A DNA stretch of 64,000 nt from Nitrosopumilus sp. (GTDB lineage: Archaea > Thermoproteota > Nitrososphaeria > Nitrososphaerales > Nitrosopumilaceae). The stretch lies in contig OZ241981.1 of the NCBI GenBank assembly GCA_965204345.1, forward strand, positions 1,568,001 to 1,632,000, in the 5' to 3' direction. The position numbers were made by a program, and so were the translations under genes. The number at the start of each line of letters is the position of its first letter. Position 1 is the first letter of the stretch. The notes below the pieces were generated by a model. The model had not been told where the DNA came from, ran no database searches, and saw nothing but the letters and a program-made list of their open reading frames with translations. Below, one piece after another: positions 19,103 through 64,000 of the stretch.

Positions 19103-20242
19103 TTAGATTAAACAAGCAACTACTATTTCAACCAGTTCTGAATCAGATTCATATGGTAATTTTACAGTAGTAAAACTAGGTGTTTTGCTAATTTCTTCAT
19201 ATTCTTCTACTTCCATGCCGTCAACTAAATAAAAGAAATAGTGAGAATCTGCAATTCCGTTGAATTCAATACAATAGTCTTTAAACATATTAGACTCAAT
19301 GGATGGAAGCGTTACCACCAAATTCCCTTCCTCTTTTGTAGGTGTTAGAGATACATTCAAAACATAATCCTCAATCACATATCCTGCATCTGAATAAATC
19401 TCAACAGAGTCAACTATTCCTTCATTTGTTTGATATGTAATGTGATGATAGTCCCCATCATAAAAAACGGATGTGGTAACCTGTGGTGCGTCATATTCTG
19501 AATATAACACAGTATCCCAGCTTAGGTGTTTTGCGGTTTCAAAGTAAACACAGGCCCAATTAGAATTAGGCCGTAAAACAAGTACGTGCTCGGGATTAGG
19601 GCAAGTGAGAGGTTCACCTACTTGCCTGTCCTCTAAAATTTCCTTTAGTGTATGATGGAAATGCCATGTTGAGTTTGTTAAAACCATTTTTTCAAAGATG
19701 GTTTCCACATCTACATCAGCTGAATTTTCTAATTCTGTGATAAATGCATCTCTGTTTCCTGCATAACTGCTAGTCTCAAAGTCATCAGGATCAACCATAA
19801 CTATCATCTTTCTGTATTTGTTGTCTGGAAATACATCATAAACACCATTTTTGTTCAGATAATTCCCAGTCAAGGTCTCCAAAGCATTATCAAAGATTGC
19901 CTGTGTCTCCTCATTCAATATGTAAGACTCGATATTCAATTTTTCAACTTCAGCTGCCTTTTTCCATAATCTGTCGTTTTCTGCCTTTTTGTCTTTGATT
20001 CGTTTTTCAATCTTTATGATATCCGCACTAGATAATTTTGATTTATCTTTTAGTTTTTTGCTATCCTCTTCAATTGATTCCTTGTTATCCCAAATCTTTG
20101 CGAGGATCTCCTCATACAGAGATACATAGTCTGTCATGTCTGATTCTTTCTTTGCTTCTGAAAGTTGTATGCCACTAAATGGCAAAATCATTGTAGCAAT
20201 CAAGGATGCAAACAGTATTGTTTTTGCGTTTTTTGCAATCAT
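19103..20242 (-). CDS. Secreted mosaic hypothetical protein
   Basis: Signal peptide KTILFASLIATMILPFSG, coiled coil, CPNPEHVLVLRPNSNWACV module, and a C-terminal domain resembling that of the PEFG-CTERM proteins. Confidence 0.8.
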   Translation of the reverse strand: MIAKNAKTILFASLIATMILPFSGIQLSEAKKESDMTDYVSLYEEILAKIWDNKESIEEDSKKLKDKSKLSSADIIKIEKRIKDKKAENDRLWKKAAEVEKLNIESYILNEETQAIFDNALETLTGNYLNKNGVYDVFPDNKYRKMIVMVDPDDFETSSYAGNRDAFITELENSADVDVETIFEKMVLTNSTWHFHHTLKEILEDRQVGEPLTCPNPEHVLVLRPNSNWACVYFETAKHLSWDTVLYSEYDAPQVTTSVFYDGDYHHITYQTNEGIVDSVEIYSDAGYVIEDYVLNVSLTPTKEEGNLVVTLPSIESNMFKDYCIEFNGIADSHYFFYLVDGMEVEEYEEISKTPSFTTVKLPYESDSELVEIVVACLI

Positions 20243-20435
20243 TACTACATGTTATATGCGTACATTACCTAAAAATTGATATTGATTTGCAACATGATTT
20301 TTCATTATACAATATTTTAATTTTTTTGCAGCATACAGTGGAACTCATTCAATAAAGATGATGCTGAATTTTGCAGTGCTGTAAAATGTGGAATATCTGG
20401 TACTGTATGAAATGCAATCAAGATCTAAAATTAAC

Positions 20436-20915
20436 CTAAAATGTCCATTTTTCACTTTGAAACATTCCTGTCAATTTCAAACTTTCAATACCGAATGTTC
20501 TTGAAACGTGAGGGATTCGATCAGTTTTGATATCATTTTCATCTGTAACTATAATTGGCTTTGAGCCTAAAATATTTGATTTCAAAGATCTTGCCAGTGC
20601 TATAAGAAAAGGATCTGCTGTTTCTCTTGTAGCATGAGGGCTTATCAACTTAGGATATTTATGTACTATTTCTTGTGCAAATTTGATTACATCTGAAGAA
20701 TTATCCAAAAACATTCTCTTATTTTCCTTACACCACTTTATCAAATCACCATCTCCTCCTTGTTCAATCTCTTTGAAAACTTGATTAGGTGCCAAAATGT
20801 TTTTGGCTTTAATCAAATCTTCAACGCTTCCCCATAAACTAGAAAATACTTTTTTTGGGTAATGCTGAGATAATAGTATCAGTGCACTTGCATCAACAAC
20901 ATAAATCGAGTTCAT
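20436..20915 (-). CDS. PIN-domain protein (DUF4411-like)
   Basis: YVVDASALI, VFKEI, ADPFLIALA, IVTDE, RIPHV: PIN acidic residues in a DUF4411-like layout. Confidence 0.85.
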   Translation of the reverse strand: MNSIYVVDASALILLSQHYPKKVFSSLWGSVEDLIKAKNILAPNQVFKEIEQGGDGDLIKWCKENKRMFLDNSSDVIKFAQEIVHKYPKLISPHATRETADPFLIALARSLKSNILGSKPIIVTDENDIKTDRIPHVSRTFGIESLKLTGMFQSEKWTF

Positions 20916-20921
20916 TCTTTA

Positions 20922-22100
20922 CTAAATTTTTGATTGAAGTTTATCAAAATATTTTACTTTCAAATTCAAATAGCTAATCATAGAATTTGTTGTAATCAGT
21001 TGTTTGTTTTTAGAATCAGAAACTAATCGGACATATTTTTTTCCCTTTTGATTGATGCATTTATCAGCCTGACTTATAGCTCCTCCTCCTTTTTTCTTAG
21101 GCTTTGAAGGAGATTCCCAAATAATCTTGCCATAGTATTCTAGATACATTTTCTTGTATGATTTATTTGCAGACAGGTTCAAAATTCTAACAATAGTTGC
21201 TTTTTTACTAGCTCTAAATTTTTTTGATAGATTTTCTACTATTCTTATGTCTTCGAATTTTTCTTCATTTGTTCTGAGTTCTCTTAAAAATTCTTTTTTA
21301 GGCATAAGTAATGAGCCGGCAAAAGCATTACACCATTTTTCAATTTGTTGTGTTTTATTTGAATTAGAATCAAAGTTTTCAGAATTAGGTAAGCAAATTC
21401 CGTCTTTTTTTAGTAAAACATGGGCATATTCATGAAGTAAAGTAAACGTTCTAGGTTTTACGTCATCTGCTGAATTTACTACTATTATTCTTGGAAATTG
21501 ATCAGTTAGTGAGAATCCACGTGCCTCAGTTATTGGCATATTTGATTGTAGAACAAAAATATTCATTGATTCTATTTTCTCTCTTAATTCACTATAGACT
21601 TGCTGAATTGGTTTTTTGGCGACTCTGCCATCATCTTTTTTTGTTTCAAATTCAAAATTCAACTTTCGTCGCTGATATAATGCAACCTCTTCAGGATCAT
21701 CTTTCAAGCTAACGTTTTCAACATCAGGTTCTTCCTCCATATTTTGAAGTTCGATTAATTCACGAGCAGTTGATTGAATATAACGTGCATTTCTTATTGC
21801 ATCTAGAGTTTTTTTAGAAAGTCTTTCATTTTCAAATCCAGCAATTTTTCTATAATCAGTTAACTTATCTTCTTTTGGAGGTTCTGGAAGAAAAAATACT
21901 GCCAAAGGTTTCTTGATATTAAATGCAATTTTTTCCAATTTTGATAATTCTATTGATGATGCTTTACTTTGCCATTGTGTGATTTGTTCTGGATCAATTT
22001 TGGTTTTTTGAGATAATTCCTTAATACTCCATCCAGTACTATCGATACTCCATTTTAGCACTTTGGGATTGATTTTAACAAGTGTTTTTTGATTCCTCAT
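20922..22100 (-). CDS. XRE-HTH plus ImmA/IrrE family metallo-endopeptidase
   Basis: N-terminal HTH (INPKVLKW...LEKIA...PLAVFFLPEPP), RGFSL, FTLLHEYAH zinc motif, EKWCNAFAGSLLMP. Confidence 0.9.
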   Translation of the reverse strand: MRNQKTLVKINPKVLKWSIDSTGWSIKELSQKTKIDPEQITQWQSKASSIELSKLEKIAFNIKKPLAVFFLPEPPKEDKLTDYRKIAGFENERLSKKTLDAIRNARYIQSTARELIELQNMEEEPDVENVSLKDDPEEVALYQRRKLNFEFETKKDDGRVAKKPIQQVYSELREKIESMNIFVLQSNMPITEARGFSLTDQFPRIIVVNSADDVKPRTFTLLHEYAHVLLKKDGICLPNSENFDSNSNKTQQIEKWCNAFAGSLLMPKKEFLRELRTNEEKFEDIRIVENLSKKFRASKKATIVRILNLSANKSYKKMYLEYYGKIIWESPSKPKKKGGGAISQADKCINQKGKKYVRLVSDSKNKQLITTNSMISYLNLKVKYFDKLQSKI

Positions 22101-49430: not shown

Positions 49431-52400
49431 ATGACACATCCTTCAACCAAGCGCTGGCCGGTAATTCAGGATATCTTAAAGCGTGAGGGCATTGCACGTC
49501 AGCATCTGAATTCCTTTGATGAATTCCTGGAAAGGGGACTTCAGAGCATCATCAATGAAGTTGGCCAGATTGATATTGAAAATGCTGAATACCCCTACAA
49601 GATACAGTTAGGCAAAGTCAAGCTTCAGCAACCAAGAATGATGGAGCTTGACGGTTCCATCACTCATATTACACCGGCTGAGGCAAGACTAAGAAACGTC
49701 TCATATTCTGCTCCCGTCATGATGGAGGCAAGCGTTGTAGAGGATGGAAAAATCTTGGAATCCAGGTTTGTACATATTGGAGACGTTCCGGTCATGGCAA
49801 AATCAAACGCCTGCATCTTGCATAATTTCACTAATCAGAAACTAGTTGAACACGGTGAGGACCCAAGTGACCCCGGAGGCTATTTTATCATTAACGGTTC
49901 TGAAAGAGTAATTGTCGGATTGGAGGATCTCTCTTACAATAAAATAATTGTAGACAGGGAGACTGTTGGTGGAAATGTTGCCTTTAAAGCAAAGGTGTAT
50001 TCGTCTATTGTTGGATATCGTGCAAAACTAGAACTTGTCATGAAAAATGACGGACTAATTGTTGCCAGAATTCCCGGCTCCCCAGTTGACATTCCCGTGG
50101 TTACACTAATGAGGGCACTCGGATTGGAATCTGATAGAGAGATTGCATCTGTGGTCTCCCTGGTAAATGAGATACAAGATGAGCTGGAGGGCTCCTTTGA
50201 AAAAGCAGGCGACGTTCCTACATCCAAGGATGCAATCGTGTATATCAGCAAGAGGATTGCACCCGGAATGCTAGAGGAGTTCCAGATAAAACGTGCCGAG
50301 ACGCTGCTTGACTGGGGACTGTTGCCTCATTTGGGAAAACATCCAGAAAACAGAAAGGAAAAGGCGCAGTTCCTAGGGGAAGCTGCATGTAAGTTATTGG
50401 AATTAAAGCTTGGCTGGATTACTCCTGATGACAAGGATCATTATGGCAACAAGGTGATAAAGTTTGCAGGACAGATGCTAGCTGACTTGTTTAGAACTGC
50501 CTTTAGAAATTTGGTCCGGGATATGAAATACCAACTAGAACGCTCCGGACAAAAACGCGGAATCAATGCCGTATCTGCGGCAATACGCCCCGGAATTATT
50601 ACTGACAAGCTAAACAATGCCATTGCAACTGGAAACTGGGGCCGTGGCCGTGTAGGCGTTACTCAGCTGCTTGATCGAACCAACTATCTTTCAACAATCA
50701 GCCATCTTAGAAGAATCCAGTCTCCCTTGAGCAGGACACAGCCAAACTTTGAGGCAAGAGATTTGCATGCTACCCACTTTGGAAGAATCTGTCCCAGTGA
50801 GACACCTGAAGGCTCAAACTGTGGCCTGGTAAAGAATTTGGCCCTGTCTGGAATTATCTCTGTAAATGTTGCCTCTGAGGAAATTGTAGAAAAACTCTAT
50901 GATCTTGGAACCGTTCATTTCTTTGAAGCAAAGGAGGATTTGAAAAAAGACGGAACCAGAATATTTGTAGACGGCCGCCTTATTGGATATTACAACAACG
51001 GCCAGGAACTGGCAGAATCCCTTAGGGATCTTAGGAGAACCTCAAAAATTCATCCCCACGTTGGAGTCTCATTCCACAAGTCCGACATTGAGGGCTCTAC
51101 AAGAAGGCTGTATGTTAACTGCAATGCCGGCAGGGTTTTGCGCCCATTAATCATTGTCAAGGACAACAAGTCCCTGCTGACTCCTGAACTGTTGGAGAAA
51201 ATCTCCAAAAAGCTGCTCTCTTGGACTGATCTTTTGAGAATGGGCATTCTCGAGGTAATTGATGCCAATGAGGAAGAAAACTGCTATGTTACCCTCGATG
51301 AAAAGGACACCAAAAAGCATACTCATCTTGAAGTCTTTCCTCCGTCTATTTTGGGCGCCGGTGCCTCAATCATTCCATATCCTGAACATAACCAATCTCC
51401 AAGAAATACATACGAGTCAGCAATGGCAAAACAGAGCCTGGGATTCTCCACACCCATGATGAACACTAGCACGTATGTCAGACAGCATCTTATGCTGTAT
51501 CCCCAGGTTCCAATTGTCAACACAAAGGCAATGAAACTCTTGGGCTTGGAGGATAGGCCTGCAGGTCAGAATTGTGTGGTTGCCGTACTGCCATTTGACG
51601 GATACAATATTGAGGATGCCATTGTTCTAAGCAAGGCATCTGTGGATAGGGGCCTGGGCCGAACGTTCTTCTTTAGGATTTATGATGCTGAGGCAAAACA
51701 ATATCCCGGTGGAATGCGTGATACCTTTGAGATCCCCAACGCTGAGGATAACATAAGAGGCTACAAGGGAGAGCGTGCATACCGGCTGCTTGAGGATGAT
51801 GGGGTTGTTGCATCAGAAGCTCCTGTCAAGGGAGGCGATATTCTAATTGGAAAGACCAGTCCTCCAAGGTTCATGGAGGAATACAGGGAGTTTGAGTCAT
51901 CTGGTCCGTACAGGCGGGATACCTCTGTTGGCGTGAGACCCTCTGAAACCGGGGTTATTGATACTGTAGTTATGACCCAGTCAAATGAGGGCGGAAAGAT
52001 GTATAAAATTAGGGCAAGGGACATGAGAATCCCTGAAATTGGCGATAAGTTTGCATCAAGACACGGACAAAAGGGCGTACTTGGAATTCTAGCCAAGGCC
52101 GAAGACCTGCCATACACTGCAACTGGAATGTCCCCTGATGTCCTGATTAATCCCCACGCATTTCCCTCAAGAATGACTGTTGGCATGATGATGGAGTCCG
52201 TTTGTGGCAAGGCAGCCGCGCTGCGTGGAACGCGCTTTGATGGTTCTGCCTTTGTTGGCGAAAAAATGGATGAGGTCAAGGAGGTAATGGATGCACACGG
52301 CTTCAAGTATTCTGGCAAGGAGGTAATGTATGACGGACGAACCGGAAAATCATTCCCTGTAGATGTCTTTATTGGCGTTGTATACTATCAAAAGCTCCAT

Positions 52401-52778
52401 CATATGGTGGCAGACAAGATCCATGCAAGGGCGCGCGGACAGGTTCAGATGCTGACCAAACAGCCCACCGAAGGAAGGGCAAGGGGTGGAGGATTAAGAT
52501 TTGGTGAGATGGAAAGAGACTGCCTGATTGCCTATGGCGCCTCTATGATTCTAAAGGACAGATTGTTAGACGAGTCTGACAAGTCCGATGTCTTTGTATG
52601 TGAGAGATGCGGGCTGGTAGCCTATCATGATGTTAAACAAAGAAAGTATGTCTGCAGGGTCTGCGGCGACAAGGCCAAGGTGTCATCCGTATCTGTGGCA
52701 TATGCCTTCAAGCTGCTCTTGCAAGAGATGCAAAGTCTTAACGTTGCACCCCGCCTGCTAATCAAGGAGAAGATCTAA
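49431..52778 (+). CDS. rpoB: DNA-directed RNA polymerase subunit B (Rpo2)
   Basis: GYFIINGSERV, ETPEG, GDKFASRHGQKG, RFGEMERD, C-terminal Zn finger. Confidence 0.98.
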   Translation: MTHPSTKRWPVIQDILKREGIARQHLNSFDEFLERGLQSIINEVGQIDIENAEYPYKIQLGKVKLQQPRMMELDGSITHITPAEARLRNVSYSAPVMMEASVVEDGKILESRFVHIGDVPVMAKSNACILHNFTNQKLVEHGEDPSDPGGYFIINGSERVIVGLEDLSYNKIIVDRETVGGNVAFKAKVYSSIVGYRAKLELVMKNDGLIVARIPGSPVDIPVVTLMRALGLESDREIASVVSLVNEIQDELEGSFEKAGDVPTSKDAIVYISKRIAPGMLEEFQIKRAETLLDWGLLPHLGKHPENRKEKAQFLGEAACKLLELKLGWITPDDKDHYGNKVIKFAGQMLADLFRTAFRNLVRDMKYQLERSGQKRGINAVSAAIRPGIITDKLNNAIATGNWGRGRVGVTQLLDRTNYLSTISHLRRIQSPLSRTQPNFEARDLHATHFGRICPSETPEGSNCGLVKNLALSGIISVNVASEEIVEKLYDLGTVHFFEAKEDLKKDGTRIFVDGRLIGYYNNGQELAESLRDLRRTSKIHPHVGVSFHKSDIEGSTRRLYVNCNAGRVLRPLIIVKDNKSLLTPELLEKISKKLLSWTDLLRMGILEVIDANEEENCYVTLDEKDTKKHTHLEVFPPSILGAGASIIPYPEHNQSPRNTYESAMAKQSLGFSTPMMNTSTYVRQHLMLYPQVPIVNTKAMKLLGLEDRPAGQNCVVAVLPFDGYNIEDAIVLSKASVDRGLGRTFFFRIYDAEAKQYPGGMRDTFEIPNAEDNIRGYKGERAYRLLEDDGVVASEAPVKGGDILIGKTSPPRFMEEYREFESSGPYRRDTSVGVRPSETGVIDTVVMTQSNEGGKMYKIRARDMRIPEIGDKFASRHGQKGVLGILAKAEDLPYTATGMSPDVLINPHAFPSRMTVGMMMESVCGKAAALRGTRFDGSAFVGEKMDEVKEVMDAHGFKYSGKEVMYDGRTGKSFPVDVFIGVVYYQKLHHMVADKIHARARGQVQMLTKQPTEGRARGGGLRFGEMERDCLIAYGASMILKDRLLDESDKSDVFVCERCGLVAYHDVKQRKYVCRVCGDKAKVSSVSVAYAFKLLLQEMQSLNVAPRLLIKEKI

Positions 52779-55700: not shown

Positions 55701-56587
55701 TGGGACTTCCACGGCTAATTGAGCTAGTTGATGCGAGAAAAAAGCCTGTAACTCCTACCATGGATATCTATCTTGATGAAGAGTCCAAAAAATCCAGAGA
55801 AAAGGCAATCGAGGTGGCAAGAAACGTGTTGCAGACCAAGGTCAGTGCCCTGGTTGCCGACACTGAAACTGACTATTCTACTAATATCAAGCTAGTTCTG
55901 AGTGAGAACAGGCTTAGGGAGAGGGGATGCACCGTATCTGAGGTAGAAGCTGCCCTTTCATCAAACAAGAAATTCAAGATGGCAGTAGCCGGTGAGCTGA
56001 TTACCCTGAGCCTGGTTGAAGAGTCTGATACTGCAACTGCAATTGCCATTAGGAACAAGGTTCTCAATACGACTGTCAAGGGGGTTCCTGACATTGAGCG
56101 GGTTACGCTGGTCCAAAAGGACGACGAATGGGTCATTCAGACCACCGGTTCTAACATTGCCAAGCTACTTGAGGTAAGGGGCATTGACAAGAGAAATGTC
56201 AGAACCAACAATGTCTTTGAGATTGCCGGAACACTTGGCATAGAGGCCGCACGAAACTCCCTAATTGACGAGCTTAACCATACATTGGGTGATCAGGGAC
56301 TCGAAGTCGACAACAGGTATATCATGCTGGTATCTGATTTAATGTGCTCCAGGGGATACATGCAGCAGATTGGCAGACACGGCATTGCCGGCACCAAGGA
56401 CAGCGTTCTTGCAAGGGCAGCATTTGAGATTACCGTTCCGACAATCGCACACGCCGCACTTGCAGGAGATGTCGAGCAGCTCAAGGGCATTACCGAAAAC
56501 GTCATTGTAGGCAGCAACATTCCGATTGGCAGCGGCACCGTTGATCTGTACATGCAAGTCTCCAAAAAGAAGCTGGCTGCACGCTAG
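52778..56587 (+). CDS. rpoA: DNA-directed RNA polymerase subunit A, unsplit A'/A'' (Rpo1)
   Basis: CPGHFGH, NADFDGD active site, and GEPGTQMTLRTFH in one 1269-aa ORF. Confidence 0.98.
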   Translation: MSVQAIKAIDGIRFSVWSPTEIRKYSVAEITAPETYDEDGMPVQGGLMDGRLGTLEPGQKCLTCGNTAARCPGHFGHIELAEPILHIAFIDNIYKLLQSTCRSCTRLKVPQEDLNAFKKIKDKHAAYTVISQKRIPEQIIEKAKKAKECPHCGKTQYELVFTKPTIFVEKTEIGEHRLLPITIRERFSQITDDDLQLLSYDPETARPEWFILQALPVPPVTVRPSIILETGIRSEDDLTHKMVDIIRVNQRLKESKEAGTPPLIVQDLVDLLQYHSTTYFDNEVSGIPQAHHRSGRPLKTLTQRLKGKEGRFRGSLSGKRVDFSSRTVISPDSNLDLSEVGVPEQVAMKLTIPEIVTEWNIERMRRLVINGPDKFPGVNYIVRPDGVKIRLDFVEDRSTIAETLEIGYLIERHLADGDIVMFNRQPSLHQMSIMAHYVKVLPGKTFRLHPSVCPPYNADFDGDEMNLHVPQSEEARAEAILLMRVQDQLISPRYGGPIIGALRDFVTGAYLLTKDDTILSIQEFSNYAMLGGYTGALPKPSAKTKDGKSVAYTGKQLFSLFLPDDFNYVLTSKWSKGTNGKAKDVVIKNGQLISGVIDKTSIGAEEPESILHRITKDYGNAIGKNFLNSILIMVKQFITHYGFSYGYGDLEVPEKNVQKILDDIEDTYDVVADLTDQYEKGTLKLTRGMKADEALEAYIVNELGKARVKAGDTANDSLDDSNAGKIMATTGARGSALNVGQMAGALGQQSRRGNRMNDGYSNRALTHYQEHESNPDAHGFVKSNYRTGLSTLEFFFHAMGGREGLVDTAVRTQQSGYMQRRLINALEHIRLEYDGTVRDPHGHIVQFLYGEDGIDVQKSDHGEAFNASRLAESQTIIDSGKKATRDEIDTLAKKYTKTFNPRLTSLVTDALQKSNLSKDGVESVCKKGLSLYNKAKVEPGQAVGIVTAQSIGEPGTQMTLRTFHFAGIKERNVTLGLPRLIELVDARKKPVTPTMDIYLDEESKKSREKAIEVARNVLQTKVSALVADTETDYSTNIKLVLSENRLRERGCTVSEVEAALSSNKKFKMAVAGELITLSLVEESDTATAIAIRNKVLNTTVKGVPDIERVTLVQKDDEWVIQTTGSNIAKLLEVRGIDKRNVRTNNVFEIAGTLGIEAARNSLIDELNHTLGDQGLEVDNRYIMLVSDLMCSRGYMQQIGRHGIAGTKDSVLARAAFEITVPTIAHAALAGDVEQLKGITENVIVGSNIPIGSGTVDLYMQVSKKKLAAR

Positions 56588-56918
56588 TAGTTCTTGTAAC
56601 CTGATCAATGTTATAGTTCTTCAAACCCTGCAGAATCCCTGGATATGCTGAGGGCTTTTGTTGTGAATCCAACGCAGAGATTCATCTATGAATACTTGGG
56701 GTCATCAGCATTGTTGGTATTTTGGATGTTTTGCAATGTATCCTAACGCTTTACTCATTTATTGACGGCTAAAACATCAATGTCAGAGTGCCCGTTTTTG
56801 AACTCGTGTTTTTGCTGGATGCTAAAGGAATACCACTAGTAAAAATTGCAATACAAAAAGCAGTAACAATGAAAATAATGGTCATTTAACAGGAGCTAGA
56901 GTAACTAATAAAATTGGT

Positions 56919-57038
56919 TTAACGTATAGCCCAACTCAAAAAAAAAATATATGTTTTGCAATATCTGCATCTTGGAAAATCACTAACATTGTTCTTCTTG
57001 CATGCAGGAGACTTCTTAAACTCTAATTTTTCAGGCAT
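56919..57038 (-). pseudogene. Tiny or degenerate zinc-ribbon ORF
   Basis: MPEKLEFKKSPACKKNNVSDFPRCRYCKTYIFFLSWAIR*: SPAC..CRYC lacks the first Cys and runs into a 10-nt homopolymer. Confidence 0.3.
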
Positions 57039-57296
57039 TTACCATAGGAAATAACCAATATCATAGTTAAGTTATGAGCACTCAAAACCGTTTTTGAGCC
57101 TTCTTGTAAAATGGAAGGTCAAAAACCTATTTTTAGAAAAATCCGGTATTATGACAAAAAAGACTTAGTGCAATACCAGGAAATACATACCACATTATCA
57201 AGACATCCAGGAAGTAAGACTTAGGATTAACACCAGGAAGTAAAATCTAAAATCTGTCTTCAAAAAGTTAGAATTACAATTTTTAACATTTTATTT

Positions 57297-58136
57297 TTAA
57301 TTCAAACTGGTTTTCATCGATACAATTTTGTCAGTTTGTAACTGTATAACACAATCAACAAGTAAAGGATGACCTGGAATAAGCAATGTTGTTACTGAAG
57401 TTGTCTTAGGCTCTACATCAATCAACGAAAAACCGTATGATACCTCATTACCATCAATATCCACTCCTAAAACATCATATTCCAATTGGTATGAAACAGG
57501 AGTATGATTATACACAGAATAATCAACTTGAACATGAGGCGGATGAAGACTATCATCACAAGTCTCTACATTATGCATAAAAAGATCAGAACTAACGTTT
57601 GATATCACACTTTCAAAAATCGAATTATCATCATATAATGAAAACAAAGCTCCAAATGACTCATTAACAGGAATAACTAATTGAATTGGTACGAAAAGGT
57701 CATTAAATCTATTTTTATCTTTAGAAGATAAACCATTGTAAAATTCGTTATAATACATATCAACATCTTTTTTACTTTCGGGAGGCATTGCGTCATAATA
57801 CTTTTGATGTTCAGGACTCCAATTATCATTAGTTTCAATAATTCCTAAATCTGTATCCAAATTATCATTAGTTTCAATAATTCCTAAATCTGTATCCAAA
57901 TTATCATTAGTTGTTATCATTTCTGAATCTGAATTTAATTCCAAAATTCCATTATCAATCATCCATTGAATCCCATTGATATATTCCTGATCAGTAATTA
58001 GACCCTGACCCCAGTATAATGCCACGTTCTTAAGCCATTCTGGTAAGACTGATTCATTAGCACTAACTTCCTTTAGTGCAGGATCAACACCTATCATCAT
58101 AATAGCAAATAATATCAAAAATGACACTTTATTCAA
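57297..58136 (-). CDS. Secreted hypothetical protein with PEWLKNVA..W module and 13-aa tandem repeat
   Basis: Signal peptide, LPEWLKNVALYWGQGLITDQEYINGIQWMIDNGIL, TNDNLDTDLGIIE twice, C-terminal Cys-flanked beta domain. Confidence 0.8.
   Translation of the reverse strand: MNKVSFLILFAIMMIGVDPALKEVSANESVLPEWLKNVALYWGQGLITDQEYINGIQWMIDNGILELNSDSEMITTNDNLDTDLGIIETNDNLDTDLGIIETNDNWSPEHQKYYDAMPPESKKDVDMYYNEFYNGLSSKDKNRFNDLFVPIQLVIPVNESFGALFSLYDDNSIFESVISNVSSDLFMHNVETCDDSLHPPHVQVDYSVYNHTPVSYQLEYDVLGVDIDGNEVSYGFSLIDVEPKTTSVTTLLIPGHPLLVDCVIQLQTDKIVSMKTSLN
57821..57913. repeat. 39-bp in-frame tandem repeat (~2.4 copies)
   Basis: AATTATCATTAGTTTCAATAATTCCTAAATCTGTATCCA at 57821 and 57860, partial copy at 57899. 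Confidence 0.9.
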
Positions 58137-58234
58137 TAATGATTTACAAAATGACGTATTAATAAAATCAACTACCCAATAACTAGGATTTTACACTAAA
58201 AAACGTCTAAATCACTTTTTGATCTTCACTGGTT

Positions 58235-58921
58235 TTAATTAATATTTTCCTGATCAATCTTAAGGTCACAATCAACAAGGTCGGGATGATCATCAATTAG
58301 TACGGTATTGTATGAAGTATCAACTGGTAAAACCTCAATACTTGTTTTACCTAATGATACCACATTACCACTCCAATCCAAACCTAAAACATCATATGTC
58401 AAATTATGCGTAGTGGGATTATTGTTAGTTACAGAATAATCTACTTTTACAACCCCTGAGGATTCCGAAATATCACAGGTTAACACTTTTGTATTAATAT
58501 TACCAAGAGTAACAAAAAATCTCTTTGACTCAGGATCAAGTTCAAAATAGACTTTTAGAAGTTCTGGTGAGATAACAAACTCATATTGAAGTTTAGAAGG
58601 TAAATTATCATAGGCATGCCTATCTATATCATCAAAATTATCATAAATCTGCTTAAATTCAGGATAGTTAGTATCATACAATTCTTTAGGGTCAGGCGTC
58701 ATAACATTAGAAGCCATATTATCATAAAATTCTTTCATATCAGGATTTAGACCATCATAAAATTCTTCAAATTTAGAAGAATAACTAACACTATTTACAA
58801 TAGTTCCTGGTGAAGCATACTCAAAACTATAATTGCTTTTAGCAGGTACTGACCCTAAATTTATTGCAAAAATTGCAACTATAGGAACTATAATCAATAA
58901 GGCTAAAACCAGTTTATTCAA
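58235..58921 (-). CDS. Membrane-anchored hypothetical protein, paralog of 57297-58136
   Basis: Both share TCD...VxVDYSVxN...LxYDVLGxDxxGNxVSxG...IxVxP...LI..HPxLVDC and FYxGL helical repeats. Confidence 0.8.
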   Translation of the reverse strand: MNKLVLALLIIVPIVAIFAINLGSVPAKSNYSFEYASPGTIVNSVSYSSKFEEFYDGLNPDMKEFYDNMASNVMTPDPKELYDTNYPEFKQIYDNFDDIDRHAYDNLPSKLQYEFVISPELLKVYFELDPESKRFFVTLGNINTKVLTCDISESSGVVKVDYSVTNNNPTTHNLTYDVLGLDWSGNVVSLGKTSIEVLPVDTSYNTVLIDDHPDLVDCDLKIDQENIN

Positions 58922-58967
58922 TATACCATTTTTTGATGATATAGATAAAAACTCAACTATTAGACAT

Positions 58968-59498
58968 CTAATTATCGATTTTATTGATCAAGCTGCAGTA
59001 TTTACAATCATCATGGTAATCATTATACTTTATACAAAATTCCATACAGCAATTAAGACAACAATGAAGACAACAATGAAGACACAGCATATGATCAAAC
59101 ATACGCTTTTTTCTAATATTGTAATCACAACATAGACACTTAGGCAAGAGGAACTCCCTATTTGGATAATATAGATACCTGCATACGTCAGCGTGGTCAT
59201 TATCTGTCTTTTGGGTCTGGTCAGTGTCCTTATCAGGCGGTATTGTCTCAACATCAAAGTACCATAAATCAGGATTATGGATTTTGTTGTATTCCTGCAA
59301 ATTCTCTAATGTATAGAAGCCTACTAAGTGCCATTTTTCTCTAATTACATTGTCAAAAAGGTCCAATTGGATTTTTTTCTTGTTTGAATTGTGCTTTTGC
59401 CTTTCAAATCGACATGGTTTTGTGTTTGAATTGTGCTTTTCCCTTTCAAGTCCTTGTCTGTGCTTAGGACAAATCATCCCAAAAGATGAAACATGCAA
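58968..59498 (-). CDS. Cys-rich hypothetical protein
   Basis: 176 aa with CLHCCLHCCLNCC, further CxC/CxxC motifs and duplicated ERxKHNSN. Confidence 0.5.
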   Translation of the reverse strand: MHVSSFGMICPKHRQGLEREKHNSNTKPCRFERQKHNSNKKKIQLDLFDNVIREKWHLVGFYTLENLQEYNKIHNPDLWYFDVETIPPDKDTDQTQKTDNDHADVCRYLYYPNREFLLPKCLCCDYNIRKKRMFDHMLCLHCCLHCCLNCCMEFCIKYNDYHDDCKYCSLINKIDN

Positions 59499-59624
59499 TT
59501 ACACTAAAGAACCTAAAGGGATTTTTTCTCTGAGGAATATGAAAGAAAAATATCAATAAAATCAGACACTGTTAAAAGAATTCTCAAATACCTAGAACAT
59601 TCTGTAAAAGCAGCTCTAAAAGAA

Positions 59625-60362
59625 CTAAATTAAAAATTCTGATGCGTGTCTTCCCTCTTCGGTAATTTCAATCCATCTGGTCCTTCCAATCTTGTTGACT
59701 TTGATAAACCTCCATTGCTTCTCCAGTGCAGAAATTATGCCCTTCTCCAGGCTTGCAAATGTGGCCTGACTCTTGTTCTCAGCGTTAACTATGATTAGTT
59801 TTTGCTCCAATGCCTTTTTTGCCATGTCCTTTTTTGATATTCTGCCGCCCGAATCCGCTATAATCTTTAATGCCTGAACATGCTTGTCATCTGGTCTTTG
59901 AATCTCATATGCTGGGATGGATTTGATATCCTTGATTCCCTTGGATATTGGCTTGCCTGAAAATCCCAGATACTCTTTTGCCTCTGCATAAAACGGATTT
60001 ACATTCTTATTATCATTGAACATCATTGATGCCATCATGCAACCAATGGCCTGAATTTTGGATCCTGAGGCCAAGTTAACTGAAATTATATTTCCAGATT
60101 CCTGTGCAATCAGTTTCTTTACGGTTTTGATTATCTGAAATAATGCAGTTCTGTTGTGATGCTCTATTGTGACTTCGATGTTTAGTTTTTTTAGCCGTTC
60201 TGAAATTTCCTGATAAAACTTTGTTGCCTTGTCCTCGCTTGGATTCTCATGAACCAGCAGGATCACCCTGTCTGCCCGCAGGTTTTTGGCAGGCAAGACA
60301 ATTCTGTCGATTTCATAGCCTACGGGGGCAATATGTACTCGCAAATTTGGAATTTCAGGCAT
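59625..60362 (-). CDS. DUF6293/HFX_2341-like regulator (CARF-like Rossmann domain plus winged HTH)
   Basis: RVHIAPVGYEIDRI...ADRVILL, VNLASGSKIQA, C-terminal wHTH (ISKKDMAK...LEKQWRFIKV..IGR...ITEEG); ATG at 60362 preferred. Confidence 0.75.
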   Translation of the reverse strand: MPEIPNLRVHIAPVGYEIDRIVLPAKNLRADRVILLVHENPSEDKATKFYQEISERLKKLNIEVTIEHHNRTALFQIIKTVKKLIAQESGNIISVNLASGSKIQAIGCMMASMMFNDNKNVNPFYAEAKEYLGFSGKPISKGIKDIKSIPAYEIQRPDDKHVQALKIIADSGGRISKKDMAKKALEQKLIIVNAENKSQATFASLEKGIISALEKQWRFIKVNKIGRTRWIEITEEGRHASEFLI

Positions 60363-60372
60363 AACAGTGTCT

Positions 60373-60388
60373 ATAGTATGTATACTAT
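60373..60388. promoter_or_regulatory. Palindromic operator candidate between the regulator and the PIN gene
   Basis: ATAGTAT-GT-ATACTAT, a perfect 7-bp inverted repeat in the 66-bp divergent spacer. Confidence 0.55.
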
Positions 60389-60428
60389 GGTCATGATATA
60401 TAATAATTTCCAAGGCGCTAACTAGTTC

Positions 60429-60854
60429 ATGAAACAAACACAAACCCAAAAAATCGTACTAGACACGTGTCTGGTAATAGATCTAGTTGAAAAACCAAAA
60501 TTTGCCTTTAAATTCAAAGACAATCTAAAAGGTAAATCAATCAAGGTAGTTCTCTGTGATGTCGTACTACATGAATTACGCAAGGTAAAGAGGTGGTCTG
60601 CAAATACTGTCATCAGACAAATCACAGAAATTCTTGGAAGACAGGTAGAACTATCTCAAATTAGCGAACAAGACAAAAAAACTGCAAAAGATATCTCAGA
60701 CAAATTCCGAATATGCCACAACGGGGACAACAAAATTCTCAGTCTGTGCAAGACAAGAGATTTTATTTTGGTAACCTTTGATGGGATGCTTCTAACGACT
60801 TGTGGCATTGTAGGGGTTGCGGGATTTCATCCGTCAAATGTGAGGGGAATTTAA
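60429..60854 (+). CDS. PIN-domain (VapC-like) ribonuclease
   Basis: IVLDTCLVID, VLHEL, GDNKIL, LVTFD catalytic acidic set. Confidence 0.85.
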   Translation: MKQTQTQKIVLDTCLVIDLVEKPKFAFKFKDNLKGKSIKVVLCDVVLHELRKVKRWSANTVIRQITEILGRQVELSQISEQDKKTAKDISDKFRICHNGDNKILSLCKTRDFILVTFDGMLLTTCGIVGVAGFHPSNVRGI

Positions 60855-60855
60855 A

Positions 60856-60939
60856 ATGGCCTCAAAGATGTATCCTAGAATCATTAGGGAATTTGAAGAT
60901 GAGCGGGACGAGCCGATGGTTTACGGAGACTCGTCATGA
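60856..60939 (+). CDS. Micro-ORF (27 aa)
   Basis: MASKMYPRIIREFEDERDEPMVYGDSS*; starts 1 nt after the PIN stop, with a purine-rich GAGGGG upstream. Confidence 0.35.
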   Translation: MASKMYPRIIREFEDERDEPMVYGDSS

Positions 60940-61046
60940 CCGTTTTATTCAGAGAAAAAGACGATTCGTCCCAAGGCGGCATTGCACCGTCTTTTGCAAA
61001 TCTCAAAGAAAGACTGGAAGAATGCCAAAGGGGGAGTTTAAATTGA
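60936..61046 (+). CDS. Micro-ORF (36 aa)
   Basis: MTVLFREKDDSSQGGIAPSFANLKERLEECQRGSLN*; ATGA overlap with the previous ORF and GGAG upstream. Confidence 0.35.
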   Translation: MTVLFREKDDSSQGGIAPSFANLKERLEECQRGSLN

Positions 61047-61240
61047 AATGTCCCAACTGTGACAAAGAGTGGATTGCAGAGATTTTTTGGGGGTATCCTG
61101 GAGATATGGAATCCCTAAAAGGGCAATTAGACAAAAAGGAAATTGTTCTTGGAGGATGCCTTGTAACTGGTTTTGATCCAAAATGGGAATGCAACAACTG
61201 CCATCATAGATGGGGAGAACGTGAAGACCTCGATGTCTAA
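61022..61240 (+). CDS. Small zinc-ribbon protein
   Basis: CPNC...IFWGYP...LGGC...PKWECNNC; start is either ATG 61022 or TTG 61043. Confidence 0.7.
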   Translation: MPKGEFKLKCPNCDKEWIAEIFWGYPGDMESLKGQLDKKEIVLGGCLVTGFDPKWECNNCHHRWGEREDLDV

Positions 61241-61517
61241 AATTGTTCCTAAAGACTCTCACAAAAAGAGCATGTCTGAGGCATTTGCCAACTCGTTTGG
61301 GGGATATCCTATAGGGTATGGCCTGGGAATTGTCATACTGCCATTGTCCCTGGGGTGGATTCAGGAGGATCCATTAATTGCAAACATGGCAATCACATTT
61401 GTCTATGCCTCTGTTTCATTTGCTAGAAGCTATTTTCTTAGAAGGGTCTTTGAGAGATTTGGAATTGATGATAATTTCATCAGGCTAGGTATAAAACTAG
61501 TTAAAAAAATAATTTGA
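61233..61517 (+). CDS. Small two-TM membrane protein (DUF7220-like)
   Basis: SMSEAFANSFGGY...ITFVYASVSFARSYFLRRVFE; start overlaps the previous stop. Confidence 0.65.
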   Translation: MSKIVPKDSHKKSMSEAFANSFGGYPIGYGLGIVILPLSLGWIQEDPLIANMAITFVYASVSFARSYFLRRVFERFGIDDNFIRLGIKLVKKII

Positions 61518-61800
61518 ATAAATCTAAATTTGCTTTATTCATACAATTAGAGAAAAACATACTGGAATTTATGTTAGATCTCTAACGTAATACTTCTGCC
61601 CTTGAATGTAACAGTCAAAGTATCTAAATTATGTTAGATTCTATGTTCCGAATTGGATACTAGGGACAAATGTCCCGAGTTTGGAACAATGTAATTTCTG
61701 CATGCTTTGGATGTGCAATTTTACTTACAGGAAAGTCAGATAGAAAATCATCAAAGCCTTTAACTCAAGAAATAATTGATAATCGGGAGAAATTCTCAGC

Positions 61801-62424
61801 ATGATGGAACGAAGTATCTTAAAATCCAGCAAAAGAATAGGCAAGTATGAGGCCCCAATTATAAAAAAATTAGAACCATTTTTTCAAAATCAGGGGTTTC
61901 AAGTTGTTCCTCATGCTCGATTTAATATTTCATGGGGAAATATTATTTCTGACATTGATTTGTTATTGATTAAAGAAAACAAAGTTGGAATTGTTGAGGT
62001 AAAATCATCTCATGATAATTTGAAAAGAGCAAAAAAACAAATTTCAAACATTAAAGATTATGTTGATTTTGCATATATTGCAACTGATTTTAAACCAAGA
62101 AAATTACCTACTCCAATAGCTGGTTGGATTTTTGTTAAAGATGAAGTTACAATAATGAAACATCCTAGAACCATTAATAATGAGCCTTCTCATTTTTCTG
62201 TTGACTCTTTACCAAAAAAATGTCTTAAACGATATTTGGATCAGAAAAATATCTCATCAAAAGGAATGTCAAAATATGAAATAACTAATAATATCATGTC
62301 CTTTCCAACAAAAAATCTCAAAGAAGAAGTAAAATCAATGGCTACATGTGGCCAGGAATGTGATACTAGCTGTCCAATATCTGAATTTGAGAAATTTTTG
62401 ATTCCTACTCTAATTTCTAAATAA
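61801..62424 (+). CDS. PD-(D/E)XK nuclease-fold protein (sce7726/MmcB-like)
   Basis: IDLLLI...IVEVKSSHDNLKRAKKQ...VDFAYIA; C-terminal CxxxCxxxCP. Confidence 0.7.
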   Translation: MMERSILKSSKRIGKYEAPIIKKLEPFFQNQGFQVVPHARFNISWGNIISDIDLLLIKENKVGIVEVKSSHDNLKRAKKQISNIKDYVDFAYIATDFKPRKLPTPIAGWIFVKDEVTIMKHPRTINNEPSHFSVDSLPKKCLKRYLDQKNISSKGMSKYEITNNIMSFPTKNLKEEVKSMATCGQECDTSCPISEFEKFLIPTLISK

Positions 62425-62585
62425 TTTTAGATTTGAAAATGCCTAAATATGGTGTAATAAGTTTGGAATTGTAGAAAAATTGCCTAATCTTTTATCATTC
62501 TCATTTAACAGGTACACAAAAAATGACGGCTTGTACATGCAGGCAAGCAGGAAAAAATAAGGAGAACAAAATTAGGTGATGTAAC

Positions 62586-62819
62586 ATGGCTGATGAAATC
62601 TCCACCCTCATGAACAACAAAAAAGACAAGGTCGTCTTGCTCCGATTAAGAAACACCAAAACTATTCAGGGGATTCTCAAGGATTTTGATATCCACATGA
62701 ACCTTACGCTGGATAATGCTGAAGATATCTCTGATGAAAAACATGAAAAGCTTGGAAAAATCCTGCTGCGTGGAGATAACATCCTGGCAGTTTCCCTACC
62801 TGATGAGGAAGAAACTTAG
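62586..62819 (+). CDS. Sm-like (Lsm) RNA-binding protein
   Basis: GILKDFDIHMNLTLDNAE (Sm1) and LLRGDNI (Sm2); AGGTGA RBS upstream. Confidence 0.93.
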   Translation: MADEISTLMNNKKDKVVLLRLRNTKTIQGILKDFDIHMNLTLDNAEDISDEKHEKLGKILLRGDNILAVSLPDEEET

Positions 62820-62850
62820 AAACCTGCTCATTAAACATTAAATCCAATAT

Positions 62851-64000
62851 GTGCCAACATTCTTTGTGGACTTTCTTTTGATATTCCTGTCTCTGATACT
62901 TCTTCCGGCATTTGGGGAATCCATTCCTGACTATAATAATCCGTACTCTCCAATCTTTACTGACAAATCTGTTTATTCGTGGACTGATAAGATCCAAATC
63001 CAAATCGTCTCTCCTAGTTGGAATTCTAACAGAAACCTGATTGATTCTATCGGAGGCACCGACGATCATGCAATAAGGATTGCCACGTCTGAGCATTCCC
63101 TGGTTCCATATCGGTTTACCGAAACAGGTACCAATTCCGGAATCTTTACTGCAGAGGTAATCCTTACCGGGTTTGAACATGATGCCGATGGCGACGGTGA
63201 TATTGACACCATTCCCAAGACCGGCGGTACCGGTCCTACCAATGGCTTTTTGCAAGTTGACAGGGACTCGGCCATCACCATATCGTTTGAGTTTGCAGAC
63301 GGCGTAGTCCTAACAGAATCTGTAGATGTCAGATGGAATCTTGCCACAATTGAGTTTCAGGAGGAGGTCCTGTTCTCAGATGATACTATACCTGTTCGTA
63401 TTGTGGATGCAGACATGAACCTGAATCCCGAATCCCTTGACAGTGTCTCTGCATACATTACTTCTGATTCTGATCTTGCGGGAATTGAAATTAATGCCAT
63501 TGAGACATCTGAAAGTTCTGGCATCTTTGTTGCCACATTTTCTATGTCACAAGCTTTGCCTTCTAGTGGAAACAGGCTCTATGCACTGCTTGGAGACAAG
63601 GTAATTGCCAAATACAATGATCATACCCTGCCCGAACCGTTTTCAGAGTCTGATAACCTGGGGATTGAAACCTTTGCCAATTTAGGCTCATCCACTCCCC
63701 CACTTGAAAGGCTTGAAAATTCCAATATTCGCTTCTCAGACAGTTCTGGCAACCGCCTGACCTCGTTTTCACCAAATGTATCCGTACAAATAGTTGGAAC
63801 CATAAAAAACCCCCATGACATTGGGCAAAAGTTTGTTTATCTGTTTCAAGTAAAGGATTCTGATGACTATGTTGAATCCCTTTCTTGGATACAAAGCGAG
63901 TTATCCCGCCAACAGTCTCTTGATGTCTCTCGATCTTGGATGCCTGAAAAATCCGGCGTATACAAAATTGAAACCTTTGTTTGGAACTCCTTTGCTGATC
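62851..64000 (+). CDS. Secreted S-layer-like surface protein (3'-truncated by window edge; not in ORF track)
   Basis: From GTG 62851 the frame reads VPTFFVDFLLIFLSLILLPAFGESIPDYNNPYSPIFTDKSVYSWTD...FTETGTNSGIF...YKIETFVWNSFAD; I saw no stop before the window end. Confidence 0.8.
   Translation, partial: MPTFFVDFLLIFLSLILLPAFGESIPDYNNPYSPIFTDKSVYSWTDKIQIQIVSPSWNSNRNLIDSIGGTDDHAIRIATSEHSLVPYRFTETGTNSGIFTAEVILTGFEHDADGDGDIDTIPKTGGTGPTNGFLQVDRDSAITISFEFADGVVLTESVDVRWNLATIEFQEEVLFSDDTIPVRIVDADMNLNPESLDSVSAYITSDSDLAGIEINAIETSESSGIFVATFSMSQALPSSGNRLYALLGDKVIAKYNDHTLPEPFSESDNLGIETFANLGSSTPPLERLENSNIRFSDSSGNRLTSFSPNVSVQIVGTIKNPHDIGQKFVYLFQVKDSDDYVESLSWIQSELSRQQSLDVSRSWMPEKSGVYKIETFVWNSFAD

Follow-up and report, generated by a model that had tools for sequence, protein, structure and literature searches.

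A probable remnant of an integrative element in the last codons of rpoA in a Nitrosopumilus genome

The DNA considered here, called the window throughout, is a stretch of 64,000 nucleotides (nt), or 64 kilobases (kb), from the genome of a Nitrosopumilus sp. It holds rpoA, the gene for an unsplit RNA polymerase subunit A, with rpoB directly 5' of it. The product of rpoA is an essential and near-invariant RNA polymerase subunit. The gene lsm, for an Sm-like protein, stands about 6 kb downstream, and the two are separated by an island of other genes. The segment 56557-62541 is most probably the decayed remnant of a site-specific integrative element that was inserted in the last codons of rpoA; this reading is given a probability of about 0.88. 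An earlier note, made from the letters of the window alone, had proposed that the island was integrated at this place, and most of what follows bears on that proposal. Handles starting with G are genomes, where G000 is the genome of the window, and handles starting with L are loci in the comparison sets.

The two ends of the island share a word of ten nucleotides, TGTACATGCA. It occurs exactly twice in the window, both times on the forward strand, at 56547 in the end of rpoA and at 62532 before lsm, and the earlier note had described both copies correctly. The expected count is 0.18, and two or more copies were reached in 1 of 100 shuffles. By itself this repeat is weak evidence, because the word was picked after it had been seen. 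It is only mildly unlikely for a ten-letter word to be repeated once in 64 kb, and repeat finders give hundreds of short matches in a stretch this rich in A+T. The match might then be chance, and the 6 kb an ordinary strain-specific cluster of genes between two others.

What lies around the two copies is more telling. The end of rpoA reads CTG TAC ATG CAA GTC TCC AAA AAG AAG CTG GCT GCA CGC TAG, or LYMQVSKKKLAAR followed by the stop. The copy before lsm reads TTG TAC ATG CAG GCA AGC AGG AAA AAA TAA. This is in frame as a second rpoA end, and 25 nt later lsm starts. In the following, this second end is called the relic.

Whether the relic is the original end of the gene can be judged from relatives. 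A total of 151 genomes of the genus were compared, and 140 of these had a match to rpoA. The distance between rpoA and lsm was taken from the coordinates of matches to the last 299 residues of RpoA and to Lsm. In 109 of the 140 genomes lsm starts less than 60 nt after rpoA, which is the empty junction that the earlier note had predicted. Of the others, 13 have a gap of at least 300 nt and 4 one of 60-300 nt. In 4 genomes lsm is on the other strand, in 4 it is on another contig than rpoA, and 6 gave no match to lsm. Among these last six, G103 nevertheless has lsm immediately behind rpoA, where its contig ends. The gap is 1.4 kb in G141 and about 190 nt in G081, G085, G142 and G146, and in G002, G018 and G151 lsm is inverted and lies 3-11 kb from rpoA.

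At most empty sites the tail of rpoA reads CAA GTA AGC AAG AAA AAA TAG, and is followed by a spacer such as GAGAA...TTAGGTGATAATT-ATG. This tail and its spacer match the relic in the window and the spacer behind it, and not the current end of rpoA in the window. The relic, then, is the end that rpoA had ancestrally, displaced as had been supposed. The current tail, GTC TCC AAA AAG AAG, is synonymous with the ancestral GTA AGC AAG AAA AAA, since both encode VSKKK. The two differ at 7 of 21 positions, and serine is encoded by TCC now and was encoded by AGC before. The new tail thus came from outside as a synonymous copy, and did not arise by drift of a duplicate. The target gene of the element is rpoA, and its final codons are now supplied by the element.

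The same can be seen by lining up an empty site with an occupied one. Between G004, which is empty, and G113, which is occupied, 555 of 600 nt are identical (92.5%) on the 5' side of the repeat core at the left attachment site (attL). After the core at the right attachment site (attR) this is 243 of 281 nt (86.5%). The element's own sides of these junctions match the empty site at only 145 of 297 and 63 of 129 nt (about 49%). The empty site, in other words, is what results when the flank to the left of attL is joined to that on the right of attR.

The comparison with relatives turns the weak ten-letter repeat into solid evidence. The reading as chance can hardly be credited any more, and is in fact refuted. 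The relic runs on beyond the repeat as an in-frame rpoA tail plus the spacer of the empty sites, the same architecture recurs in 15 other genomes, elsewhere with a dedicated integrase at the junction, and the junctions of G113 and G004 switch as just described.

In all, 16 of the 151 genomes have inserts at this site. A word of 15 nt from just 5' of the relic was used to find the conserved right arm of the element in the genus. Right arm, relic and lsm stand together in 14 genomes, G148 has a diverged copy, and G068 shows the attL side alone, on a short contig. The tail CAA GTC TCC AAA AAG AAG or a near variant of it was found in all 13 occupied genomes other than G000 whose attL was fetched, as well as in G068. 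The metagenome loci L112-L118 carry this replacement tail too.

The inserts vary a great deal in size. The smallest are those of G145 (0.44 kb) and G152 (0.48 kb), the largest is that of G113 (32 kb), and nine genomes, G000 among them, have inserts of 2.5-13.7 kb. In G145 and G152 (loci L070 and L074) the 437 and 483 nt between rpoA and lsm consist of left arm, right arm and relic, so that here the interior of the element has been deleted and a minimal scar is left. The earlier note had said that integration would be refuted if relatives kept the same intervening genes. They do not, as the cargo is unrelated between islands.

Two further arrangements were seen. In G144 (L077 and L078), rpoA ends in the element-type tail, and the right arm with lsm is found 24 kb away on the other strand, which points to an inversion that had one of its breakpoints inside the element. 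In G148 (L076), about 100 nt before lsm, the region of the relic has expanded into short tandem copies of units like GCATGCAAGCAA.

The RpoA of the window has four more residues, LAAR, than the replacement tail encodes. The earlier note took the entire new C-terminus, LAAR included, as supplied by the element. That holds for the tail itself and fails for LAAR. In 12 of the 13 fetched genomes a stop stands directly after KKK (KKR in G152), being TGA in 11 and TAG in G153, and G068 also has TGA directly after these codons. In G000 the TGA with which RpoA ends in most of the other occupied genomes is missing, and the frame runs on to a downstream TAG. That TAG stands at the same place of the left arm in G145 and G113. 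LAAR is thus read-through after a secondary loss of the element's stop, and not part of the element's design. Ends supplied by the element have drifted elsewhere too, to ...SKKTKPTK in G017 (L032) and ...SKKSGSAK in the metagenome locus L113, each before the stop.

The identical stretch at both ends is longer in some relatives than the 10 nt of G000: it is 16 nt in G113 (ACTTGTACATGCAAGT), 18 nt in G015 and 12 nt in G017. Within it, inverted repeats of 5 nt, ACTTG and CAAGT, flank the 6 nt TACATG. Two short inverted repeats around a spacer of 6 nt are the usual layout of the core site of a tyrosine recombinase. The core is probably wider than 10 nt, and would then be ACTTG-TACATG-CAAGT.

In relatives, the place next to attL is taken by a candidate for the enzyme. 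The first gene of the G113 island (L067:3360-4619) encodes a protein of 420 amino acids (aa) and starts 42 nt after the stop of rpoA. G068 has a full-length copy in the same place after rpoA, 82% identical to that of G113. In both genomes, open frames of 430 aa hold the full-length 420-aa match beside attL. Stubs of the first 34-45 codons of this gene are left in G156, G153 and G014. The family counts 98 cluster representatives at an expectation value (E) of at most 1e-10, of which 94 are at least 46% identical. Some sources name members of it site-specific integrase of Nitrosopumilus, and many members in the protein collection carry a precomputed match to the Pfam family Phage_integrase (PF00589).

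An AlphaFold model built from 14 sequences has a mean predicted local distance difference test (pLDDT) score of 70. The matches listed by Foldseek in the PDB at E up to 0.03 are all tyrosine recombinases, with E starting at 1e-4. They include XerA (5hxy, 4a8e), Cre/Tre, IntI, Brujita Int, Tn1549 Int and lambda Int. The Foldseek probability is 1.00 for the top ten and 0.80-1.00 overall, and the TM-scores are low, at 0.17-0.26 on the query. Given this pLDDT and these TM-scores, only the fold class is supported, that of a two-domain tyrosine recombinase. The canonical catalytic set of these enzymes is R...K...H-x-x-R...H/W...Y. R154, H292 and Y300 are invariant in the 14 sequences and align with the GVR and GH motifs of XerA. 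The protein of the relatives is thus predicted, from sequence and model, to be a tyrosine-recombinase-like integrase, and its activity as such is presumed.

A metagenome scan gave 15 loci with this integrase (L112-L126), of which 10 have at least 70 nt on the 5' side of the gene. The end of rpoA stands directly 5' of the integrase in 9 of these 10 informative loci, down to an integrase identity of 53%. The earlier note had suggested looking in metagenomes for elements that carry a tail of rpoA beside a recombinase gene, and these nine loci are just that. The rpoA ends found there are ...DLYMQVSKKK, ...QVSKKS, ...QISKKS and ...KVVED, each followed by a stop. One contig of a Nitrosarchaeum genome has the same adjacency of rpoA and integrase. 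The most distant relative of the integrase, in L126 (46% identity), has no rpoA tail on its 5' side, and ARAGORN calls no tRNA there. The tail on the element's side varies together with the lineage of the integrase, as is expected if the tail belongs to the element's own attachment site (attP).

The metagenome contigs also tend to break at this site. In 11 of the 12 loci that hold the N-terminus of the integrase, the contig ends at most 320 nt on the 5' side of the gene, and three more loci are cut inside it. The breaks fall at or just inside the end of rpoA, which is what one expects where strains with and without the element are assembled together.

Taken together, the reading of the two repeats as attL and attR is borne out by the empty sites, the shared ends and the integrase beside rpoA in relatives. 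Several observations pull the other way, and are best considered in one place. The two attachment sites of G000 are identical over only 10 nt. No integrase was found in G000 by tblastn with the G113 protein, and no remnant of one by hmmsearch --max with a profile of 14 sequences on six-frame pieces. The earlier note had likewise seen no integrase and had called the island decayed or mobilised in trans. The mechanism therefore has to be read from relatives: an integrase stands beside the attachment site in G113, G068, the nine metagenome loci and the Nitrosarchaeum contig, and is missing there in G000. As the gene is absent in G000 and present in relatives, the G000 copy is a decayed member of the family. 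The integrase itself scores 24.5 bits (G113) and 24.9 bits (G068) against PF00589, where the gathering cut-off is 27.1. Searching PDB sequences with a profile gave an E no better than 0.07. Its box II is Y266-S-L-K269 (Y-x-x-K), where XerA has H-V-L-R. The attP pattern, with the right arm joined to an element-type tail, was found in none of the 151 genomes of the genus and in no viral contigs. Viral contigs gave no match to the integrase either. Finally, the tree described next is based on one gene beside the site, its rows are partly hand-picked, and base composition is uneven between rows, including that of G000.

The tree was made from 2.25 kb of rpoA on the 5' side of the site. It has 54 rows, made up of 15 occupied genomes and 39 others. 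Of these 39, 18 were picked by hand, one is G103, and the remaining 20 come from the first 24 relatives that were drawn. The occupied genome G065 was left out because it has no rpoA match. Occupied genomes are scattered over this tree, and the starred branches force at least seven changes. The best tree that holds the occupied genomes together is rejected by the approximately unbiased (AU) test with p 1.8e-48. There are pairs of sisters of which one is occupied and the other empty, G113/G004 and G153/G158, both with support of 100. Such a pattern may come from repeated gain or from repeated clean loss, and both are recombination at this core.

It could also be that a single integration took place in an ancestor of the genus, after which the insert was inherited vertically, had its cargo replaced wholesale and was lost repeatedly. 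The island of G000 would then not be an independent insertion, and the family may have been immobile for a long time. The deepest branches of the rpoA tree are indeed occupied (G148, G000, G156, G154 and G152), and the relics of the deepest-branching occupied genomes are the most decayed. No intact integrase was found in 11 of the 13 fetched occupied genomes, a count that leaves out G065, G113 and G068, and the missing attP form also fits. However, a loss so clean that the AGC-type tail comes back is itself an excision at the core, and for that the same recombination is still needed. The two sister pairs above have pristine relics. Intact integrases (46-85% identity) are common in metagenomes, where nearly all informative loci have them beside rpoA, and the basal placement may be an artefact of composition, for which the tree tool gave a warning. 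A single ancient integration is therefore considered unlikely.

Public sequencing data say something about the present state of the island. Both of its junctions are bridged by contigs from four public runs of four studies, aligned to 56000-63000. The contigs of these four runs gave no joint that skips the island, and contigs hide rare forms such as excision products. With no integrase left and the contigs all carrying the island, the G000 copy is immobile on its own and fixed in its lineage. Strains do differ over 57243-59475, the region of two paralogous cargo genes, where contig joints from a sponge metagenome skip 957 and 1256 nt.

This last observation, in which the inside varies and both junctions are kept, would also suit a spread of island alleles by homologous recombination in the flanks, as happens at other hotspots of variable islands; the repeat would then be no more than a trace of the original insertion. 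The flanking genes, rpoA and lsm, are highly conserved, and the cargo is wholly different between islands. Against this, occupied genomes group with empty relatives on the rpoA tree and not with each other, and between G113 and G004 host-type sequence gives way to element-type sequence exactly at the core. Such an exchange of alleles is very unlikely to be the explanation.

The preferred reading remains that of a site-specific integration, which may be pictured as follows. A circular element would have carried an attP that mimicked the last 30 or so nt of rpoA. Its own integrase, of the tyrosine-recombinase type, would have recombined this attP with ...GAC TTG TAC ATG CAA GT... in the last codons of rpoA. 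The crossover would have been inside the dyad-symmetric core, made up of ACTTG, the TACATG spacer and CAAGT. At the resulting attL, the body of rpoA would have been joined to the synonymous tail of the element, and at attR the original tail and lsm would have been pushed some 6 kb downstream, behind the element's right arm. Later, in G000, the integrase gene was lost, and a mutation of the element's stop codon added LAAR to RpoA. The relic tail gained about four changes, which is why only 10 nt of the core are still identical in G000.

The features of the locus are collected in Table 1. G+C drops from about 0.48 in rpoA to 0.27-0.43 (in segments of 500 nt) between about 56600 and 62500, where the entire window is at about 0.40, and this drop also speaks for an insertion. 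Another patch of low G+C lies far from the island, at 20001-22000 (0.31 against about 0.40), and may be foreign DNA.

Table 1 Features of the rpoA-lsm region, with positions counted from the start of the window.
Feature	Position	Strand	Basis
rpoB	49431..52778		directly 5' of rpoA
rpoA, unsplit RNA polymerase subunit A, 1269 aa	52778..56587	+	Pfam Rpb1 domains 1-5, E 1.5e-92 to 6.5e-25
attL core, 10 nt identical to attR	56547..56556	+	wider core-site equivalent 56544-56559
Element-type replacement tail, gtC TCC AAA AAG AAG	56560..56572	+	common to other occupied genomes
LAAR extension and stop	56573..56587	+	left-arm alignment; contigs of runs X10, X1 and X2 cover it, no listed difference
Left island end	56588..57296	.	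no open reading frame (ORF) of at least 60 aa beyond 56672; intact relatives carry the integrase here
279-aa protein, hydrophobic N-terminus, three 39-nt tandem repeats (57821-57937), cargo	57297..58136	-	no Pfam match
228-aa paralogue of the 279-aa protein, cargo	58235..58921	-	direct repeat 71% over 103 nt; no Pfam or PADLOC match
176-aa Cys-rich ORF	58968..59498	-	ORF list
CARF-like Rossmann and winged-helix protein (HFX_2341_N / DUF6293_C, Csa3-like), cargo	59625..60449	-	Pfam E 6.5e-35 and 4.4e-19; PADLOC CARF3 E 1.1e-69
PIN-domain protein, cargo	60429..60854	+	Pfam PIN E 4.9e-10
146-aa ORF, weak CapR-like zinc-ribbon match	60800..61240	+	21 bits against a curated cut-off of 24.2
DUF7220 membrane protein	61173..61517	+	Pfam E 3.6e-17
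207-aa ORF, weak match to nuclease part of Csx1 model	61801..62424	+	PADLOC E 1.2e-5; no Pfam match
Conserved right arm, about 100 nt, with invariant A+T-rich block AAATGCCTAAATATGG	62432..62530	+	directly 5' of the relic in every occupied genome
attR: core 62532-62541 and displaced ancestral rpoA tail (LYMQASRKK and stop)	62531..62560	+	matches empty-site tails
lsm, Sm-like protein	62586..62819	+	Pfam LSM E 1.2e-18; directly follows rpoA at empty sites

In G000, the 709 nt on the 3' side of rpoA are without a sizeable ORF. The cargo behind it has little in common with that of other islands. The DUF7220 gene is the sole cargo gene with a strong match in another island (G017; tblastn 84% over 50 aa). 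The 279-aa ORF has weak matches of 28-35% in G144 and G113, and otherwise no cargo of G000 is shared. Some 25 kb before the start of the window, at G000:C1:1542505-1543263 on the reverse strand, there is another homologue of tyrosine recombinases, in a frame of 395 aa. It is 30% identical to the integrase of the rpoA site and presumably belongs to a different element.

The intact 32-kb element of G113 (L067:3318-19901 and L068:1-15350) carries a Bsp6I-like restriction enzyme with a C5 methylase, two further DNA methylases and a UvrD/PD-(D/E)xK helicase-nuclease. It also has an HD-domain protein, an endonuclease III-like protein and a methyladenine glycosylase. This cargo is one of defence and DNA repair. 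Pfam recognised no replication, conjugation or virion genes in this island.

The right arm is a conserved part of these islands. It is present at L053, L044, L057 and other loci, and 13 other island sequences with unrelated cargo match it at 77-88% identity. A search of 56400-62900 against Rfam returned a single match, which stayed below threshold (19 bits, where the gathering score is 86), and the conservation of the arm is thus not accounted for by a known RNA family. The arm may be a promoter or leader for lsm, which the insertion has cut off from rpoA, or it may be an arm site for the integrase.

A broader view is offered here tentatively, as possible and a little short of probable. One lineage of integrases would have stayed with the last codons of rpoA as its place of attachment, in Nitrosopumilus, in Nitrosarchaeum and in one or more hosts that are less closely related. 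The junction of rpoA and lsm would then be a standing entry port for defence and other cargo. The right arm, which is kept even in the 0.44-kb scars, may serve lsm as its promoter or leader.

For G000 itself the island, as an immobile and fixed remnant, is ordinary genome history. The wider interest is that the gene of a core transcription subunit is a recurrent attachment site for mobile DNA in globally abundant nitrifiers. The last residues of RpoA evidently tolerate replacement and extension (...KKKLAAR in G000, ...KKTKPTK in G017, ...KKSGSAK in L113). The rpoA-lsm junction is a hotspot of variable islands that can be read directly in metagenomes. The compact pair of integrase and attachment site is a candidate genetic tool for ammonia-oxidising archaea and, if the integrase is active, would be a ready-made single-copy integration system for organisms that lack such tools.

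Integration of this kind is already known. Krupovic et al. (2019; PMC6563490) mapped 68 integrated elements of thaumarchaea, with 39 in tRNA genes, 15 intergenic and 14 in the 3'-distal parts of protein genes. One of these last 14 supplies a new stop codon. The attachment sites have a median length of 17 bp, and that of NitEve-E2 measures 13 bp (PMC6563490). With 14 of 68 elements in the 3' ends of protein genes, the mode is not rare in the phylum; it is the target gene that is unusual. The earlier note had argued from the usual tRNA targets that an RNA polymerase gene would be an unusual one, and only the part about the gene stands.

Among the elements in that survey, NitEve-E2 of Nitrososphaera evergladensis is much like the one described here. 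It comes from the same phylum, has a short attachment site and is inserted at the last codons of a gene, in this case for a Zn-finger protein. It supplies a substitute end and stop, and a related genome has the empty site (PMC6563490). However, the 14 protein genes that the survey lists as targets do not include rpoA, and its main text has no mention of 'rpoA' or 'RNA polymerase' (PMC6563490). A further difference from the elements listed there is that here one integrase lineage keeps its target across at least two genera. In the titles and abstracts of the literature searched, no archaeal element targeting rpoA is described. Within that literature, the rpoA target and its integrase lineage have not been found in print.

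The Family 1 casposons of PMC6563490 occur in the same genus, Nitrosopumilus, and also sit at the 3' end of an essential information-processing gene, that for EF-2. However, casposons use Cas1, terminal inverted repeats and target-site duplications (PMC6563490). The proteins of the G000 and G113 islands include no match to Cas1, and no inverted repeat pairs the ends. The copies of the repeat differ right after the core, as attachment sites do, and the recombinase is modelled with a tyrosine-recombinase fold. A casposon was therefore set aside, and the reading as a transposon was rejected as well.

Archaeal elements with SSV-type or 'suicidal' integrases (PMC7253208) are similar in being site-specific and in using a tyrosine recombinase. 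Their attP lies inside the integrase gene, however, which is split on integration (PMC7253208). Here G113 and G068 have an unbroken integrase gene beside attL, and the core is in rpoA, upstream of the start of the integrase, so this type does not apply either.

Families of integrases dedicated to one protein-coding target are also known outside the archaea, such as the bacterial integrases specific for dusA (PMC4482086). There too a lineage of tyrosine integrases is tied to one conserved housekeeping gene, the cargo is variable and the gene is restored. The islands in dusA are bacterial and use the 5' end of the gene (PMC4482086), whereas the elements described here are archaeal and use the 3' end of the gene for an RNA polymerase subunit.

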